From Marinisporobacter sp. (GTDB lineage Bacteria; Bacillota; Clostridia; Peptostreptococcales; Thermotaleaceae): a stretch of DNA of 24,000 bases. The DNA lies in assembly GCA_025210525.1 (NCBI GenBank), contig JAOARP010000047.1, positions 693,465 to 717,464 on the forward strand, written 5' to 3'. This document shows positions 3,831 through 19,217 of this stretch, piece by piece (within the stretch, counting starts at the first letter, position 1; each line of letters starts with the position of its first letter). The notes beneath the pieces were generated by a model. It ran no database searches. It was not told the DNA's origin and was given only the letters and a program-made list of their open reading frames with translations. Made by a program: the position numbers and the translations under genes.

Positions 3831-4472
3831 CTATCCCCCTACCTCTCTTTGAATCATATACCTTCCACTATAGCTTAGTTGTATATAATAGTCAATAATC
3901 CTTCTTTTCCATTTCCCTAAGGGTTTTATCGGGTTTTCAGATAGGCGCTGGTGGTCATTTTCTAAATCTAACTCTATCTCTAAATCTAACTCTATCTCTA
4001 TCTCTTTCTCTATCTCTGGTGGACATTTGTCCTCTACTACTTCAAAATTGTCCTGATCGTTTTGGGACTTTTGTCCTTTTAACAACTCTTCTTTTCTTTC
4101 TGCCATCCTTTTTTTATAATCACTTACTCTCTTTTCTTCTGTTCTAGAATCTCCAACAAATTCTTGAATATGTAACATAAATATAGTCCCATCCTCTAAA
4201 ACTTCAATGAGTCCTAATGTCTTAAAAATTTCCAAAGCACCCCTTACCGTATCCTCATCCATAGATACAACAGTCGCTAACATCTTTTCATCATATGTAA
4301 TATATTCATTTAATTTTAGTTCCCCTTCAAACTTTAAGGATTTAAGATACATTTTTAGAATCAAATTGCTGTATTTATATCCATTTTCCATGGATTCTAA
4401 AAATTTTATCTCAGGTCTATCAAAAAAGTTATCCATTAGCTTTATGTAATAATATTTATGGTTAGTACACAT
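3831..4472 (-). CDS. Phage replisome organizer N-terminal-domain-like protein with an acidic repeat linker
   Basis: The N-terminus YYYIKLMDNFFDRPEIKFLESMENGYKYSNLILKMYLKSL...YDEKMLATVV...TVRGALEIFKTLGLIEV resembles the Phage_rep_org_N family as I recall it. An AAGGAGAG SD lies 6 nt before the ATG. The gene ends 7 nt before the ABC exporter start. Confidence 0.6.
   Translation of the reverse strand: MCTNHKYYYIKLMDNFFDRPEIKFLESMENGYKYSNLILKMYLKSLKFEGELKLNEYITYDEKMLATVVSMDEDTVRGALEIFKTLGLIEVLEDGTIFMLHIQEFVGDSRTEEKRVSDYKKRMAERKEELLKGQKSQNDQDNFEVVEDKCPPEIEKEIEIELDLEIELDLENDHQRLSENPIKPLGKWKRRIIDYYIQLSYSGRYMIQREVGG
3961..3996. repeat. 18-bp tandem repeat x2 (tctaaatctaactctatc) inside the CDS, followed by a degenerate tct/atc tract
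   Basis: Two exact adjacent copies at 3961-3978 and 3979-3996. They encode the acidic stretch EIELDLEIELDLE. Confidence 0.85.
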
Positions 4473-13987: not shown

Positions 13988-14434
13988 TTACTCAGCTATA
14001 CCAAATATTTCATAGAAATAATCTTTATCATTTTCTAATTCTTCTTGTAGCTCATTATCATCAATAAAAGTCTCTTTATCATACACACAATATACATGCT
14101 TTATAGTAAATTTATCTTTATGGTCTAATTTATAGGCTGTTACAACCTCTTTAACATGTTTTTTGTTTTTAGATTTTTGGATTACTACCCTATAAGTCTC
14201 TGAACCAAAGTCCTTTTCATAATAATGATTCCAACTGTTCCTTGAAGATTTATATACATAGTCTGGTTGCTCTAAAATATTTTTTATCTTTTCTATTGTT
14301 ATTTCAGGATGCCTAGTTTTTATATGATTTCTAAAATTTCGATAATACAAAATAATTTTTTCATGAATTCTTCCTTTAATTCTAAAAATCTTTAATTTAT
14401 TTTCAAAATAGTATTCCACCTTACATCTCCTCAT
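13988..14434 (-). CDS. Small basic protein of unknown function; possible RelE/BECR-fold toxin-like protein
   Basis: The ORF lies 21 nt upstream of hsdM. It has the motif HIKTRHPEITIEKIKNILEQPDYVY, then a beta-rich core (YRVVIQKS...VVTAYK) and an acidic tail. An alternative start is the GTG at 14419 with a perfect AGGAGA SD 6 nt upstream. The fold assignment is only a resemblance. Confidence 0.55.
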   Translation of the reverse strand: MRRCKVEYYFENKLKIFRIKGRIHEKIILYYRNFRNHIKTRHPEITIEKIKNILEQPDYVYKSSRNSWNHYYEKDFGSETYRVVIQKSKNKKHVKEVVTAYKLDHKDKFTIKHVYCVYDKETFIDDNELQEELENDKDYFYEIFGIAE

Positions 14435-14455
14435 TTCAATAAACTTAACTTTCCT

Positions 14456-15049
14456 TTAAAAATTATGATCATCAAACACTTCAAAAATCTCTTCTTCAAA
14501 TTCTTCTTGTTCTGGTTCACTACTTACCCAATCAGGTAAAACTTCATAGTAATGTGCCAATGCTTCTATTGTCTTATGCAACACTACTTCATGCTGCACT
14601 TTTTCAACTAATTCAATAATTAATTTATATGTATCCATATAAGGATTATTATCTACTACATTTAAAGCTTCTTTAAATCTTTCCATAAGCTTCGCCTTTT
14701 CAATATTTCTTTCAATAGTATTCATTTCTTCTTTGTCATAAACAGGCACTTCTACAAGATCATTTACTTCGCCCACCATAAATTGTTTTTCATGCTTTTT
14801 TATAACTGGTTTTAAGTCCCTCTTTAATTTTTCTTTTTGAATCTCTAGTTTTTCTATTTCTGATAAATCTTCACTGAAATATTGTTGATTTAGTCCAAAG
14901 AGTTTTTCAAGTATGGGGAGGTATTTTTTAGGAATTTTTTGTTTCTTTTTTACCCACATGTTTATATTTTGTTTCTTAATTCCAAGCTTTTCTGCAAGTT
15001 CTATATGTTGCATATTATAAAGACTCAGAATATATTCTAATCCTATCAA
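14456..15049 (-). CDS. XRE/Cro-type helix-turn-helix protein with a coiled-coil middle and an acidic C-terminal tail
   Basis: The HTH is MQHIELAEKLGIKKQNINMWVKKKQKIP. TTG start at 15049 with a GGGGGTG SD 5 nt upstream. The C-terminus is SSEPEQEEFEEEIFEVFDD. Confidence 0.75.
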   Translation of the reverse strand: MIGLEYILSLYNMQHIELAEKLGIKKQNINMWVKKKQKIPKKYLPILEKLFGLNQQYFSEDLSEIEKLEIQKEKLKRDLKPVIKKHEKQFMVGEVNDLVEVPVYDKEEMNTIERNIEKAKLMERFKEALNVVDNNPYMDTYKLIIELVEKVQHEVVLHKTIEALAHYYEVLPDWVSSEPEQEEFEEEIFEVFDDHNF

Positions 15050-15126: not shown

Positions 15127-15323
15127 TATATTTATGAAATTTATGGAATTCACTTCACTTTGATATTTAAGCACTAAAAAACACCCATCCTTCGCAGATA
15201 GATGCTCTTTATAGTTTTGTTTATATAGTAAAACTATGTTCTTCACTCACATGCGGATACTCTTGAAGCAATATCACGCTCAAATAACTTCGCAATAATA
15301 TCCTTATTATCCTATAATATGTT

Positions 15324-15350
15324 AAAACCTCCCTATGTTAGGAAGGTTTT
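15324..15350 (-). terminator. Rho-independent terminator of the two-gene cassette
   Basis: A 10-bp stem with one mismatch (aaaacctccc / ggaaggtttt) and a 7-nt loop. It begins 4 nt after the stop of the 60-aa ORF, and the stem runs into TTTT on the minus strand. Confidence 0.5.
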
Positions 15351-15354
15351 AATA

Positions 15355-15537
15355 TTATGCTCTTGCTACTTTTGACATAGCTATTCTTTTAGTTTCCACT
15401 CTTATCATACCTTTTCTATCAGTTGTAGGCATCACCCAACTATTGTTTTTTATTTCTTCAACAGTAGTTAATCGCTTTATCTTTACTCCTGCACTTCTAA
15501 ATCTTTCTTCCACAGTATTAACAGTTTTTGTTTTCAT
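15355..15537 (-). CDS. Small basic protein (60 aa), unknown function, translationally coupled to the upstream gene
   Basis: The ATG at 15537 lies 1 nt after the TAA stop (15541-15539) of the 376-aa ORF. A GAGGGTG SD sits inside the end of that ORF. The sequence is MKTKTVNTVEERFRSAGVKIKRL... and is K/R-rich. Confidence 0.55.
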   Translation of the reverse strand: MKTKTVNTVEERFRSAGVKIKRLTTVEEIKNNSWVMPTTDRKGMIRVETKRIAMSKVARA

Positions 15538-15538
15538 A

Positions 15539-16669
15539 TTAATCACCCTCTATACTACTAGTATACATTATTTCAGTATCTTTTTTCAAACTTTTTTCAA
15601 AATCATTAATTATATTATTAACCAAATCACGCCAGTTTGGAAAATTAGTTATATTAGGTAATAGAGATAACAATATAACATATTCTTTTCCATTTAGTTC
15701 AAAACATCTTGTGACATAAATTCTTCCTTTCTTTTTACTATATCCATTATTCATGAATACATGTGCATTAATTTTTAATATTCCCGCTAAAATGCCAGTT
15801 CTTTTTATACTTCTTAATACATTATTATTGATATCATCATCAAATACATTAACAGAGTATACCACATCATTATCATATTCATTTCTGATTTTAATGTTTA
15901 TCTCAAAGCATAGTTCAATCATTGATAGTAATATTGAATCCACCTCATCTAATTCTTCTAAATTTTTATTTTGGACTGTTGGCAAATACTTTCTGATAAA
16001 CCCATCTATCTTATCTTCTATATCTCCTCTTATTGTCTCTTCCATTTGATAACTCACTTGTAACTCTGATAGATTTTTTTTAGTTTCTATCGCATCAAGT
16101 TTTTTCACTTTTTCTAATATATCATTTATGTCAAAATAAATTGCATTAGGTATTTTATAATAATTTTGTATCATAGCATTTATATCAATATCTTCAAATG
16201 CACAACCATTAATATATTTTACCTTTATGGTTGTCACTTCATTATTGATATTTTTAGAATATGTATATATTTGAGCACAATGTATTATGGAATTTTTGTC
16301 AGTCAATTTTCTAAGATGATTAAATAATAGTTCTTTTTCATAAAAACTAAATAAGTCTTTAAGTTTTGTAACCAATGTACCTGTTTTTAGTTCTAGCAAT
16401 CTATTCTTTTCTTGAATTTCCTTCTTTTTTTCACTGATTTTTTCTTCATATGGTGAAATGATCAAATTGCTTACTTCAGTTAAAATAATAATTGTAATGA
16501 TACTTCCAACAATCGCCCAAACAACTTTAATTGTTAGCTGATTATCTAAAAATTTAATCCAAAAGTCAGTTTTATCTGTGTGATTTGAAATATAATAGTC
16601 TAATAATTTTCCTAATATCCAAAGGATTAATACTGAAACTACTTTTACTAATTTCCCCCATTTTTTCAT
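15539..16669 (-). CDS. Membrane-anchored protein (2 predicted TM helices, coiled coil, ~270-aa cytoplasmic domain), unknown function
   Basis: Hydrophobic stretches at residues 7-23 and 47-71. A charged heptad-like segment follows (EEKISEKKKEIQEKNRLLELK). No P-loop or nuclease motif was seen. A GGGGA SD and a TATAAT -10 (16706-16701) lie upstream. Confidence 0.7.
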   Translation of the reverse strand: MKKWGKLVKVVSVLILWILGKLLDYYISNHTDKTDFWIKFLDNQLTIKVVWAIVGSIITIIILTEVSNLIISPYEEKISEKKKEIQEKNRLLELKTGTLVTKLKDLFSFYEKELLFNHLRKLTDKNSIIHCAQIYTYSKNINNEVTTIKVKYINGCAFEDIDINAMIQNYYKIPNAIYFDINDILEKVKKLDAIETKKNLSELQVSYQMEETIRGDIEDKIDGFIRKYLPTVQNKNLEELDEVDSILLSMIELCFEINIKIRNEYDNDVVYSVNVFDDDINNNVLRSIKRTGILAGILKINAHVFMNNGYSKKKGRIYVTRCFELNGKEYVILLSLLPNITNFPNWRDLVNNIINDFEKSLKKDTEIMYTSSIEGD

Positions 16670-16924
16670 TTGTACATTTCCCCAATCATCTTAAAGCGTA
16701 ATTATACTTATTTTAGCATAATATTCTCATATCTAGTTTACAACTTAAGAGCAAAATATTCAATTCTTAAAATATTTCCAATTGTTAATTTTACATTCGT
16801 ATTTCAAATAAAGTTCTAATCCATCATGGTCAATCCGAATAATTTTCTCTTTCCCCCTCGCATACCCCCGCTAAGCTCTACTCTAATACTTCATCTTATA
16901 CTACTATCAGCTCATGATCTTTGG

Positions 16925-17385
16925 CTTTCATTTTTTCTTGAATATAATTTTGAATATGAATTTTGGTAAACCTAATTCTATTGTTATACGCTTACCATCT
17001 AAAGCTTCAATAGCCATTTTTGTAGTATTTGCAGTTTAAATATAATAATCTTTAAATCTTTTTTTCTTTTCTGTTAATAGCTTATATATTAAATTCCTTA
17101 GTTTTTTTGAAGTAATTCAAGTCTTTTTTTGAAGTTCCTTAAATGCACTAAGCCCTTGTTTACATAATATCAGTGCTTTATTTACTAATGTTTCTTGTTT
17201 TTTTCATACATAAATACTCCAAAGTTCTTTTTCTTTAAAAGGATATACGATTAATGTACCTACCTTTTCAAGCAGCTCAAAAACTTCATCTTTTAAATAA
17301 ATGTTCAGGAATATTAATTGAATATTCTTGGTTAATAAGGGCTACTTTATCATCAATTTGTCTAATGACATCTTTAGAAATATGC
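16925..17385 (-). pseudogene. Degraded ImmA/IrrE-like gene downstream of the XRE repressor (multiple frameshifts and stops)
   Basis: Minus-strand fragments in shifting frames read ISKDVIRQIDDKVALINQEYSINIPEHLFKR / KDEVFELLEKVGTLIVYPFKEKELWSIYV / KKQETLVNKALILCKQGLSAFKELQKK / ..TANTTKMAIEAL. The layout resembles ImmA N-terminus, then HExxH, then E-AN-FA, but the catalytic residues are not intact. No ORF over 60 aa remains. Confidence 0.35.
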
Positions 17386-17733
17386 TTATTTAAACAATCC
17401 ATGAGTAGCTAACTCCTCTTCCATATTAGAAAGATTATTTATTAAAGAAAAAATATAATCAGCTGTATCATGATTCTCAATCGTTCTATATAAATGAACA
17501 ACCTCTAATTCCCTTTCTTCAATTATATTGTTTCCACTAATAAGTTCTTCAACCGATATATCTAAGAAATTTGATACAGCAACCAATTCCTCTGTCTTGA
17601 TAGCTTTCTTTCCCTTAATAATTTTATTAACAACTTGTTTAGAAGTGCCCAATCCATTAGCTAACTCTACTTGGGTTTTATTTTGTTTGTTTAAATAAAA
17701 AAAAATATTAGATCCAATTTGCATGATATCCAT
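17386..17733 (-). CDS. XRE-family HTH transcriptional regulator (prophage repressor-like)
   Basis: The HTH is KTQVELANGLGTSKQVVNKIIKGKKAIKTEELVAVSNFLDISVEELI. It is divergent from the integrase fragment. Confidence 0.85.
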   Translation of the reverse strand: MDIMQIGSNIFFYLNKQNKTQVELANGLGTSKQVVNKIIKGKKAIKTEELVAVSNFLDISVEELISGNNIIEERELEVVHLYRTIENHDTADYIFSLINNLSNMEEELATHGLFK

Positions 17734-17771: not shown

Positions 17772-18137
17772 ATGACAAAGAAAATTCTTCTAAAGTATAT
17801 ACAAATATTTAAACCAATGCCAGAATTACCTACTAAAAAAGTATTTCTCAATCAATATAAAAAACCTATTACCCCCAATGCCCTTGAAATGGTTATCACT
17901 AGGTTACGAAAAAAGACAGGCATTACACGCTTACACCCTCACATTCTTAGGCATACATTCGCTACTAAGTATTTAATTGAAGGTGGTGACATATTCTCAC
18001 TACAGCAGATATTGGGTCATACAAGTTTAGAGATGGTTAGAAGATACTCGCATCTAGCATCAAGCTATGTTATAGCGAACCATAAAAAGTTATCACCTTT
18101 GGATAATTTACAAAAAAGAAAGCATAATTTTTCTTAA
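17772..18137 (+). pseudogene. Tyrosine recombinase/integrase, C-terminal fragment only
   Basis: Contains box II and the catalytic tail, HPHILRHTFATKYL...GHTSLEMVRRYSHL (HxxR ... H ... Y). It lacks the N-terminal core-binding domain and the first catalytic Arg block. It is 121 aa, whereas full-length enzymes are roughly three times longer. It lies about 90 nt from a tRNA 3' end. Confidence 0.8.
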
Positions 18138-18229: not shown

Positions 18230-18306
18230 TGGCACACCCTGAGGGACTCGAACCCCCGACGAACTGATTCGAAGTCAGCCACTCTATCCAACTGAGCTAA
18301 GGGTGC
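18230..18306 (-). tRNA. tRNA-Arg (anticodon UCG)
   Basis: The reverse complement folds as a cloverleaf with anticodon loop CTTCGAA, T-loop TTCGAGT and an encoded CCA. Several G.U pairs are present, including 1:72. Confidence 0.8.
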
Positions 18307-18335
18307 ACGTTTATTTATACTATTATATGTTAAGA

Positions 18336-18359
18336 AAGTTAGCATATACATGCTAACTT
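18336..18359. other. 10-bp hairpin between tRNA-Gly and tRNA-Arg(UCG)
   Basis: aagttagcat-atac-atgctaactt. It could be a processing site or a weak terminator. Confidence 0.4.
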
Positions 18360-18365
18360 TAAAAT

Positions 18366-18439
18366 TGGAGCGGATGATGGGAATCGAACCCACGCTATCA
18401 GCTTGGAAGGCTGAAGTTCTACCATTGAACTACATCCGC
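18366..18439 (-). tRNA. tRNA-Gly (anticodon UCC), copy 1
   Basis: GCGGATGTAGTTCAATGGTAGAAC...CTTCCAA...GGTTCGATTCC...CCGCTCCA. Identical to the copy at 18816-18889. Confidence 0.92.
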
Positions 18440-18448
18440 AAATTTTAG

Positions 18449-18524
18449 TGGTGACCCATCCGCGGCTCGAACGCGGGACACCTTGATTAAAAGTCAAGTG
18501 CTCTACCAACTGAGCTAATGGGTC
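18449..18524 (-). tRNA. tRNA-Lys (anticodon UUU)
   Basis: GACCCATTAGCTCAGTTGGTAGAGC, anticodon loop CTTTTAA, T-arm CCGCGTTCGAGCCGCGG, encoded CCA. Confidence 0.92.
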
Positions 18525-18529
18525 TTATA

Positions 18530-18606
18530 TGGGGTGGATGATGGGATTTGAACCCACGCATGCAGGAGCCACAATCCTGTGTCTTAACCACTTGACTACA
18601 CCCACC
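18530..18606 (-). tRNA. tRNA-His (anticodon GUG)
   Basis: Anticodon loop TTGTGGC. An extra 5' G gives the 8-bp acceptor stem (G-1:C73) characteristic of tRNA-His. CCA is encoded. Confidence 0.92.
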
Positions 18607-18607
18607 A

Positions 18608-18684
18608 TGGCGGGTCCACAGGGATTCGAACCCCGGACACACGGCTTAGAAGGCCGTTGCTCTATCCAACTGAGCTATGAACCC
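18608..18684 (-). tRNA. tRNA-Arg (anticodon UCU)
   Basis: GGGTTCATAGCTCAGTTGGATAGAGC, anticodon loop CTTCTAA, T-loop TTCGAAT, encoded CCA. Confidence 0.9.
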
Positions 18685-18779
18685 AAGTCATATCTGCATC
18701 TTCATTTAATACTTTTAATGGAACCTAGCCTGTTAACTAAGCGATTCACGCAAAATCATAGATTTTGGTTCTCTGCTTA

Positions 18780-18805
18780 TATCCAACTGAGCTATGAACC
18801 CAAGT
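18780..18805 (-). repeat. Orphan duplicate of the 5' leader plus the first 22 nt of tRNA-Arg(UCU)
   Basis: The 26 nt tatccaactgagctatgaacccaagt are identical to 18663-18688. Homology stops in the D-loop, and no T-arm or anticodon arm follows. Confidence 0.8.
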
Positions 18806-18815
18806 TTTAAAAAAT

Positions 18816-18889
18816 TGGAGCGGATGATGGGAATCGAACCCACGCTATCAGCTTGGAAGGCTGAAGTTCTACCATTGAACTACATCCGC
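18816..18889 (-). tRNA. tRNA-Gly (anticodon UCC), copy 2
   Basis: Identical over 74 nt to 18366-18439. The aaaatt 3' flank is also shared. Confidence 0.92.
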
Positions 18890-18935
18890 GTATTGTTTTT
18901 CTTCAATCAAGAATTATTTGTCCTGACAAGATAAT

Positions 18936-18964
18936 ATATTATCACAATCACTTCATTCTGTCAA
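18936..18964 (-). promoter_or_regulatory. Internal sigma-A promoter of the tRNA cluster (drives Gly-Arg-His-Lys-Gly-Arg)
   Basis: The minus strand reads TTGACA (18964-18959), an exact 17-nt spacer, then TAATAT (18941-18936). Confidence 0.65.
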
Positions 18965-19012
18965 GACTTTTTTCACCATCCAATATTTTAATGAAATGTT
19001 GATCATTAAAGT

Positions 19013-19089
19013 TGGTCGAGGTGGCAGGATTTGAACCCGCGGCCCTCTGGTCCCAAACCAGATGCGCTACCAAACTGCGCTACACCTCG
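19013..19089 (-). tRNA. tRNA-Pro (anticodon UGG), copy A
   Basis: CGAGGTGTAGCGCAGTTTGGTAGCGC, anticodon loop TTTGGGA, T-loop TTCAAAT, encoded CCA. Confidence 0.92.
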
Positions 19090-19140
19090 TCATGATGAAA
19101 ACTTAGTCAATAAGCTTTAATGAAATGTTGATCATTAAAG

Positions 19141-19217
19141 TGGTCGAGGTGGCAGGATTTGAACCCGCGGCCCTCTGGTCCCAAACCAGATGCGCTACCA
19201 AACTGCGCTACACCTCG
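19141..19217 (-). tRNA. tRNA-Pro (anticodon UGG), copy B
   Basis: Identical to copy A. It is part of a ~128-bp tandem duplication that includes the downstream hairpin ctttaatga-N8-tcattaaag. Confidence 0.92.

Follow-up and report, generated by a model that had tools for sequence, protein, structure and literature searches.

An unannotated two-gene family carried by mobile elements of Bacillota, with an architecture like that of SpoIISA/SpoIISB

What is the role of a cassette that encodes a membrane protein and a small basic protein in an accessory segment of a clostridial genome, and does it belong to any described system? We addressed this question for two adjacent genes in a 24,000-nucleotide stretch of DNA from Marinisporobacter sp. 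(GenBank assembly GCA_025210525.1, contig JAOARP010000047.1, positions 693,465 to 717,464 of the forward strand), and the whole stretch is called the window below. The cassette belongs to an unannotated, mobile-element-borne two-gene family of Bacillota with SpoIISA/SpoIISB-like architecture. Among the possible functions, a toxin with its neutraliser, acting as a toxin-antitoxin (TA) or an abortive-infection module, is the best supported. The first-pass annotation of this DNA had described a 376-residue protein and a basic 60-residue protein, and this two-gene anatomy is accurate, with both open reading frames (ORFs) arranged as follows.

16701..16730, minus strand: promoter-like site, with -35 ATGAGA, an 18-nt spacer and -10 TATAAT at 16706-16701 (10/12 matches)
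15539..16669, minus strand: large gene, 376 aa, ATG start, putative effector or toxin (ORF call and family profile search)
15355..15537, minus strand: small gene, 60 aa, ATG start, putative neutraliser or antitoxin (ORF call, homologues and solo phage copies)
15324..15350, minus strand: terminator-like hairpin, core stem, beginning at the small-gene stop codon (folding energy)

A conserved gene pair

Both genes are real, because the large one is represented by 252 protein clusters and the small ORF is kept beside it at 11 of 11 loci, and the pair is a conserved unit. The distinct loci compared are the window, L001, L002, L004, L006, L012, L023, L025, L027, L028 and L029. At each of them, an ORF for a basic protein of 49-63 residues (pI 9.7-11.5) lies directly 3' of the large gene. 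Its start falls between 20 nt inside and 64 nt past the large gene, and a Shine-Dalgarno sequence precedes it at all eleven loci. At the nearer loci, the small proteins can be aligned clearly with the one in the window and share the motif W-[VI]-M-P-T-x-D-[RK]-[KR]-G-M-I, and for the most distant ones the layout is alike and the alignment is weak at best. No recognisable DNA-binding motif or family match was found in the small protein. Across pairs of loci, identity between the large proteins tracks that between the small ones (r = 0.64, Mantel p ~8e-4), indicating co-divergence. The pair has the generic organization of type II TA systems, with two adjacent co-transcribed genes (gaps of -20 to +64 nt) and the unit located on mobile or accessory DNA. 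No neighbouring or target gene recurs across the 11 loci, and only the pair itself is conserved.

The family is rare at close range and broader at the profile level. A word-indexed search of 5.8 billion proteins found four other clusters only, at 41-61% identity. When 1.84 billion cluster representatives were searched exhaustively with a profile, 252 proteins passed E<=1e-3 and 131 of them E<=1e-10; most are 320-425 aa in length. The named members are all from Bacillota and are recorded as 'hypothetical protein' of Clostridium, Paenibacillus, Intestinibacter and Brevibacillus; one member is mislabelled 'fumarate reductase subunit D'. DNA pattern scans with the close subfamily added only a locus in one Desulfosporosinus metagenome-assembled genome (MAG) and an IMG/VR contig that was already known. 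Searches with blastn and tblastn gave no match among the INPHARED phages and a single match among the PLSDB plasmids, on a plasmid of Brevibacillus marinus.

In the window, the junction of the two genes reads gagGGTGAtTAAtATG on the minus strand (also given as GAGGGTGAtTAAtATG). The ATG of the small gene is 1 nt past the TAA of the large gene, and its Shine-Dalgarno sequence, GAGGGTGA, is embedded in the 3' end of the large gene; both features had been noted in the first-pass annotation and are confirmed. The small protein has a pI of 11.0, with lysine and arginine making up 15 of its 60 residues. The cassette had also been credited with its own -10 element, which is present at 16706-16701, ~30 nt 5' of the large-gene ATG, together with a weak -35. 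Sites of 10/12 quality occur 24 times, compared with 19.1 expected in shuffles of this AT-rich region (26% GC). Since sites of equal quality are as frequent in shuffled AT-rich DNA, a promoter upstream of the large gene is plausible, at a frequency of such sites no better than chance. The terminator proposed at 15324-15350 corresponds to a strong hairpin, whose core folds at -18.5 kcal/mol (z = -6.2; 0 of 200 shuffles fold equally well) and whose extended stem spans 15314-15358. A simple terminator pattern scan made no call at 15324-15350, because the U-run of the hairpin belongs to its stem.

Neither protein matches a model of Pfam, NCBIfam, PHROGs or PADLOC-DB v2.0.0, or any PDB sequence, and searches of PDB sequences with the family profiles also returned nothing. 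When 105 family members were scanned singly against Pfam, PADLOC, PHROGs and NCBIfam, no match was consistent, and the PADLOC matches were scattered, single and weak. No description of the family or its accessions was found in the searched literature. The suggestion that the module is undescribed stands as far as PADLOC, Pfam, NCBIfam, PHROGs and the searched literature go.

Architecture of the large protein and its analogues

The large protein was modelled with AlphaFold2 (AF2), which gave a pLDDT of 73 with five sequences and a pLDDT of 93.4 with a pTM of 0.79 with the 105-sequence alignment. The protein is predicted to contain two transmembrane (TM) helices, a stalk and a globular domain, as listed below.

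16583..16666, minus strand: TM helix 1, residues ~2-29, with the N-terminal positive patch MKKWGK (hydropathy, ~5-28; AF2 helix 2-29)
Residues 30-46: loop between the TM helices, ~17 residues outside, with a short helix at 36-44 (AF2)
16460..16531, minus strand: TM helix 2, residues ~47-70 (hydropathy, ~45-70; AF2)
16295..16459, minus strand: stalk helix, residues 71-125, cytoplasmic and continuous with TM helix 2 (AF2 helix 47-125)
15542..16294, minus strand: GAF/IclR-effector-like alpha/beta domain, residues 126-376 (AF2, Foldseek and conservation)
Residues 129-174: three strands (AF2 model)
Residues 175-262: helical insert of ~90 residues (AF2 model)
Residues 279-299: two helices (AF2 model)
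Residues 303-336: three strands (AF2 model)
Residues 346-374: C-terminal helix (AF2 model)

Hydrophobic segments occur as an N-terminal pair in at least 104 of the 130 family members that are full-length, in agreement with the two helices first seen in the window protein. The topology prediction that had been called for places both termini inside and the bulk of the protein in the cytoplasm. The loop between the TM helices begins with a Y-x-ISNH motif that is invariant in the subfamily. The charged, coiled-coil-like segment of the first-pass annotation corresponds to the stalk helix, in which positions 78/81/85/88/92 form a hydrophobic heptad pattern conserved family-wide, and the remainder of the stalk packs on the globular domain. 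In the model, this heptad suggests a coiled-coil oligomer. No further domain follows the sensor-like fold, so candidates for the activity of the protein are limited to its membrane helices and to binding through its globular part.

The C-terminal part had been likened to a GAF/PAS sensor fold, and the sensitive sequence and structure searches recommended with that remark gave no family match by sequence and a GAF/IclR-like fold class for the large protein. In the PDB, Foldseek ranks effector domains of the IclR family highest (E 8e-4 to 9e-3, probability 1.0), with TtgV 2xrn at E 8e-4 and probability 1.0. Further matches are HrcA, MYC3, the PDE6 GAF domain and fRMsr (TMt 0.55), those to PDE6 GAF and fRMsr at E 0.5-0.8. 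Against BFVD, a 'GAF domain-containing protein' was matched at probability 0.97, with nothing below E 1e-2. The model and these IclR-effector and GAF domains (TtgV 2XRN, HrcA 1STZ, PDE6 GAF and fRMsr 4MMN) appear to share a six-stranded sheet, flanking helices and a loop-lined pocket. However, identity is only 5-10%, and the cassette protein differs in its membrane anchor, its large helical insert and its lack of a DNA-binding or catalytic partner domain. Pfam GAF models gave no sequence match in the window protein or in the 105 members. The model thus supports an assignment to the GAF/IclR-like class only, because the PDB TM-scores are low (0.26-0.55, and 0.26-0.39 for the IclR matches).

Conservation in the family is concentrated in the sheet and in the helices at 279-299, and the membrane helices, loop, stalk and insert are variable. 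Nine residues (Q133, Y135, N164, Q168, R290, G292, K313, R316 and Y318) are 91-100% conserved among sequences that are otherwise ~20% identical. From their positions in the model, we infer that these near-invariant residues line the canonical GAF pocket. Binding of a ligand, or even catalysis, may therefore be central to the function of the pocket, which keeps alive a sensor or regulator as a rival reading. In that case, the pair would be a signalling or regulatory module, in which a membrane protein that senses the state of the envelope or, by its GAF-like pocket, a ligand in the cytoplasm sequesters or releases a small DNA- or RNA-binding regulator of the element's genes, much as an anti-sigma factor holds its sigma factor.

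Several features are consistent with such a regulator. The large protein has the layout of a bacterial signal-transduction sensor, with a coiled coil and a GAF-like domain following two TM helices, the nine polar core residues suggest a specific ligand, and the small proteins, at pI 10-11, would be compatible with nucleic-acid binding. The cassette also often adjoins integrases or recombinases, or shortly precedes packaging genes, and a copy of the small gene in phages (see below) heads a tRNA operon. On the other hand, the small protein shows no recognisable DNA-binding motif or family match, no target genes recur beside the pair across the 11 loci, and phages, integrative and conjugative elements (ICEs) and plasmids, the contexts in which it is found, differ in regulatory logic. 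We consider a regulatory module improbable, at about one chance in a handful.

Among described systems, SpoIISA/SpoIISB comes closest to the cassette. SpoIISA begins with TM segments and continues through an extended helix into a GAF fold in the cytoplasm, which forms dimers by way of a helical bundle, and killing requires the whole protein, which damages the membrane; SpoIISB is a basic protein of 56 residues, encoded just downstream, which wraps round the GAF dimer with sub-nanomolar affinity (PMC3057836). Common to this system (PDB 3O6Q) and the cassette protein, as modelled, are N-terminal TM helices, an extended helix and a cytoplasmic domain that is of GAF type in SpoIISA and GAF-like here. 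Both also lack a further output domain, both have a basic protein of ~56 aa encoded directly downstream, and both are found in Bacillota. They differ in that the cassette protein has two TM helices rather than three and is 376 aa long rather than 248 aa (50% longer), with a helical insert of ~90 residues. Conservation is found in the GAF-like pocket here, whereas most invariant residues of SpoIISA map to TM2, TM3 or the C-terminal helix (PMC4926146). Finally, the cassette is located on mobile elements, whereas SpoIISA belongs to the Bacillus core genome. As judged by sequence, the cassette is an analogue of SpoIISA/SpoIISB and is not detectably homologous to it.

Other membrane effectors of bacterial immunity have a related layout. 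Cap14, Cap15 and Saf_2TM of CBASS (cyclic oligonucleotide-based anti-phage signalling systems), PycTM of Pycsar and the CARF-TM proteins of type III CRISPR likewise join an N-terminal two-helix membrane module to a cytoplasmic ligand-sensing fold without an enzymatic domain. These effectors act by sensor-controlled membrane damage, the same mode of action as proposed here. Their sensors are SAVED, CARF or cNMP-binding (cyclic nucleotide monophosphate) domains, in contrast to the GAF/IclR-like fold of the cassette protein, and where those systems have a signal-producing enzyme, the cassette has a small protein partner. No CD-NTase, cyclase, Cas10 or CRISPR gene lies beside the cassette in the window or at the related loci, and the Saf_2TM and CARF-TM models gave only isolated weak matches, each in 1 of 105 members. 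With no cyclase neighbour and no consistent model match, a CBASS-type effector was set aside. A holin/antiholin lysis cassette was also rejected, as there was no Pfam or PHROGs holin match and no adjacent endolysin at any locus, and a 376-aa protein with a large cytoplasmic domain is further unlike a holin.

Mobile elements and solo copies in phages

Nine of the 11 loci have enough flanking DNA to judge their context. The comparison is qualitative, and each of these nine is situated within a mobile or accessory element; several of the settings include known defence or TA genes.

Window: tRNA-adjacent island with type I restriction-modification (R-M), SIR2 and a PBECR3 nuclease
L001: tyrosine recombinase upstream, with a short ORF between
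L002 (the same as IMG/VR contig L011): cassette immediately 5' of the terminase and portal genes
L023, Clostridium pasteurianum prophage: between a recombinase and packaging and head genes
L025, Intestinibacter-type element: integrases, resolvases and DnaD-like genes
L027: island with DUF3427 helicase, NERD, NUDIX, DUF2726 and AEP primase-helicase
L028: ICE with TrbL, PrgI, VirB4-type ATPase, topoisomerase III and a giant SNF2 protein
L029, Brevibacillus marinus plasmid: adjoins IS3 and an integrase
L006 and L015-L022, Desulfosporosinus island: DarT/Macro, HepT/MNT, IS605 and an integrase fragment

The two uninformative loci are L004, with unannotated neighbours and a GH18 chitinase nearby, and L012, on a 1.5-kb contig. 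No housekeeping synteny was seen at any locus examined. In the Desulfosporosinus island, a DarT and Macro-domain (DarG-like) pair and a HepT/MNT pair lie at L015 3084-4785, within 5 kb of the cassette.

Such contexts might also suit superinfection or entry exclusion, in which the membrane protein would block DNA injection or conjugative entry, the small protein would be accessory or regulatory, and no cell would die. The large protein is membrane-located, all the judgeable loci are on prophages, ICEs, plasmids or islands, and a recombinase lies upstream in L001, L023 and L025; the neighbours in L004 have no assigned function. Placement next to a recombinase recalls the sie genes of prophages. 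Exclusion accords poorly, however, with a protein that is predicted to expose only ~17 residues outside and to keep its bulk and all its strongly conserved residues in the cytoplasm. An obligatory cytoplasmic basic partner is atypical of known exclusion proteins, and a phage that carries the small gene alone is hard to explain. We regard exclusion as unlikely, and as less likely than the regulatory module.

The small gene indeed occurs alone on two metagenomic contigs, L013 (160 kb, TARA) and L014. The solo products are 57-60% identical to the small protein of the window, and the paired copies are at most 48% identical to it. No homologue of the large gene was found in the 20 kb and 8.9 kb examined near the solo copies. 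Both contigs are SPbeta-like phage DNA, and the genes on L013 include TerL, portal, a sigma factor and an RNA polymerase of YonO type. For this polymerase, identity to its counterparts in SPbeta-like Bacillus phages and in Clostridium phage D-1873 is 50-57%, and the GC content of L013, 30.6%, matches that of the window. In both contigs, the solo gene opens a tRNA array or is embedded in one, has a promoter TTGACA-17-TATAAT with a TG before it, and has a Shine-Dalgarno sequence; dN/dS between the two phage copies is ~0.13, indicating purifying selection. With its own consensus promoter, its Shine-Dalgarno sequence and this dN/dS, the solo copy is a real and selected phage gene, probably strongly expressed. 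As a precedent, a phage antitoxin mimic has been reported for DarTG (PMC11481870).

The tRNA arrays comprise 14 genes on L013 (8716-10238 and 13058-13132) and 9 genes on L014 (2328-2746 and 5622-6849) in the stretches examined. A DUF2828/DUF7788 gene (PHROG 'RNA-binding protein', Ro/TROVE-like) is located just downstream of the solo gene on both contigs.

Variants within one population also bear on which of the two genes might be toxic. In Desulfosporosinus (L019 1344-2500 and L015 8769-10000, on near-identical contigs), a 13-nt deletion splits or frameshifts the large gene in one variant and ~61 nt are inserted at its 3' end in another, and the small gene is intact in both. This disruption of the large gene fits counter-selection of a toxic gene. 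The roles could also be reversed, with the small protein as the active one, for example an inhibitor that phages direct against the host, and the membrane protein providing immunity or storage; or the pair might serve some everyday accessory role at the membrane and simply travel with mobile DNA. The existence of the small gene alone and strongly promoted in phages is in keeping with this idea, as is the rarity of the family, which comprises five close-range clusters, occurs on a single PLSDB plasmid and gave no match in INPHARED. However, the large gene is always upstream and translationally linked, which means that both proteins are always co-produced. In addition, the gene disrupted in the population variants is the large one and not the small one, and none of the loci showed housekeeping synteny. 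These two possibilities together are the least probable of the alternatives, and we give them very little weight.

In the window itself, the cassette sits in an AT-rich accessory segment adjoining a tRNA array. Housekeeping genes flank this segment, with rph, rdgB-like, gerM-like and amidase genes on one side and rpsD on the other. The ribosomal protein S4 and RNase PH of the window share more than 90% identity with their counterparts in a Marinisporobacter sp. MAG, which marks the host as a spore-forming clostridium of marine type. The neighbours of the cassette are as follows.

18230-19217, minus strand: eight tRNA genes (Arg, Gly, Lys, His, Arg, Gly, Pro, Pro)
17772-18137, plus strand: integrase C-terminal fragment, 121 aa (library match)
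17386-17733, minus strand: Xre-type helix-turn-helix (HTH) regulator, matching PADLOC PDC-M69A at E 2.6e-22
16670-17385, minus strand: ~700 nt of stop-ridden reading-frame fragments
14456-15049, minus strand: HTH protein, 197 aa, with a YdaS/HTH_3 match and a full-length phrog_36540 match
13988-14434, minus strand: PBECR3-type nuclease-domain protein, 148 aa
6049-13966, minus strand: type I R-M operon hsdM-hsdS-SIR2(PDC-S25)-hsdR

The integrase fragment and the tRNA array form a probable island boundary; an att-like direct repeat of the tRNA-Arg region was sought elsewhere in the window and none was found. The SIR2-domain gene between hsdS and hsdR (525 aa) is a full-length match to PADLOC PDC-S25 at E 7e-169. 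The cassette had been placed between prophage-remnant regulators and a type I R-M/SIR2 operon, and this holds, with the Xre gene and integrase fragment on one side and the R-M/SIR2 genes on the other. The cassette is not obviously a member of the adjacent R-M/SIR2 operon. Membership in the PADLOC candidate system PDC-M69A was considered and rejected, as the ~700-nt stop-ridden stretch separates the cassette from the Xre regulator and this regulator is absent at the other loci.

The stop-interrupted stretch after the Xre gene (for example ...ELLEKVGTLIVYPFKEKELWSIYV*) resembles, by eye, a decayed ImmA/IrrE-type partner gene. The 197-aa HTH gene and the 148-aa PBECR3 gene (13988-15049, minus strand), placed between the cassette and the R-M operon, look like a separate TA-like or phage-derived module. 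Beyond the R-M operon, a gene for a protein with a phage replisome-organiser N-terminal domain (3831-4472, minus strand) lies between an MsbA-like ABC transporter and an M20 amidohydrolase and may be a further mobile-element remnant. A 93-aa ORF at 18529-18810 (plus strand) is a mere overlap with the tRNA genes.

Proposed mechanism and significance

Since the closest described system is SpoIISA/SpoIISB, we propose the same toxin-neutraliser logic for the cassette. The large protein would insert into the membrane by its two N-terminal helices and oligomerise via the coiled-coil stalk, with the GAF-like domain in the cytoplasm and the membrane part as its candidate output. The small basic protein, co-translated with it, would hold the large protein in an inactive state by attaching to its cytoplasmic domain. 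The module would be triggered when the small protein is lost or displaced, or when a ligand occupies the conserved polar pocket of the GAF-like domain; this might happen if the element is lost, if an infecting phage shuts off host synthesis or if a phage-induced metabolite appears. The freed membrane helices would then damage the membrane, leading to post-segregational killing (addiction) or to abortive infection. SPbeta-like phages may use their strongly promoted solo small gene as an antitoxin mimic that disarms the module.

A membrane toxin with a small neutraliser, serving mobile elements as a TA or abortive-infection module, is thus a tentative reading by analogy, to which we give slightly less than an even chance. 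The first-pass annotation had arrived at a TA- or abortive-infection-like module from the layout alone, and that idea gains support here from the SpoIISA/SpoIISB analogue and the solo phage copies. The analysis directly shows the anatomy of the genes, their family and obligatory pairing, the fold class, the conserved residues, the mobile contexts and the solo copies; binding between the two proteins, toxicity and its neutralisation, membrane damage, the trigger and a role in defence are inferred. A more specific version, an undescribed anti-phage abortive-infection family of Bacillota in which a GAF-like sensor with a fully conserved polar pocket controls membrane damage by two helices, a small protein restrains it and phages have captured a solo, early-expressed copy as an anti-defence gene, is possible but rather doubtful.

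Several observations weigh against a membrane toxin with a neutraliser. By sequence, homology to SpoIISA was rejected, as hhalign gave a probability of 0.6% for the family profile against Bacillus subtilis SpoIISA (a query sequence checked against 3o6q_A). The Pfam models SpoIISA_toxin and SpoIISB_antitox do not match the window proteins, SpoIISA_toxin matches none of the 105 large-family members, and SpoIISB_antitox matches none of the small proteins tested. Entry 3o6q is absent from the 50 best Foldseek matches, and the TM-scores of the PDB matches are low, as described above. Conservation resides in the GAF-like core and not in the membrane helices, the opposite of what SpoIISA shows, and the globular domain, rather than the membrane part, could be the active element, as an enzyme or a specific receptor. 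Only ~10 contexts were seen, and location on a mobile element is also compatible with accessory functions outside defence. The Desulfosporosinus disruptions could be errors of metagenome assembly.

We note that the toxin-neutraliser hypothesis is directly testable, because matched solo phage copies and an invariant pocket are at hand. The nine near-invariant pocket residues provide a concrete handle on the ligand or trigger, and the question of the trigger arises for SpoIISA too. Should the hypothesis be wrong, ~250 cluster representatives with a confident fold model and no annotation would still be a clean target for family curation. Should it be true, the cassette would show that GAF-regulated membrane toxins paired with small protein antidotes exist in a second, independent lineage, one that rides on the prophages, ICEs and plasmids of Clostridia and Bacilli instead of residing in a core genome. 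It would also come with a natural counter-measure, the solo small gene of SPbeta-like phages, which could be used to study specificity and mechanism. If the abortive-infection version is true, the two would form a matched pair of defence and counter-defence that is recognisable from sequence alone.

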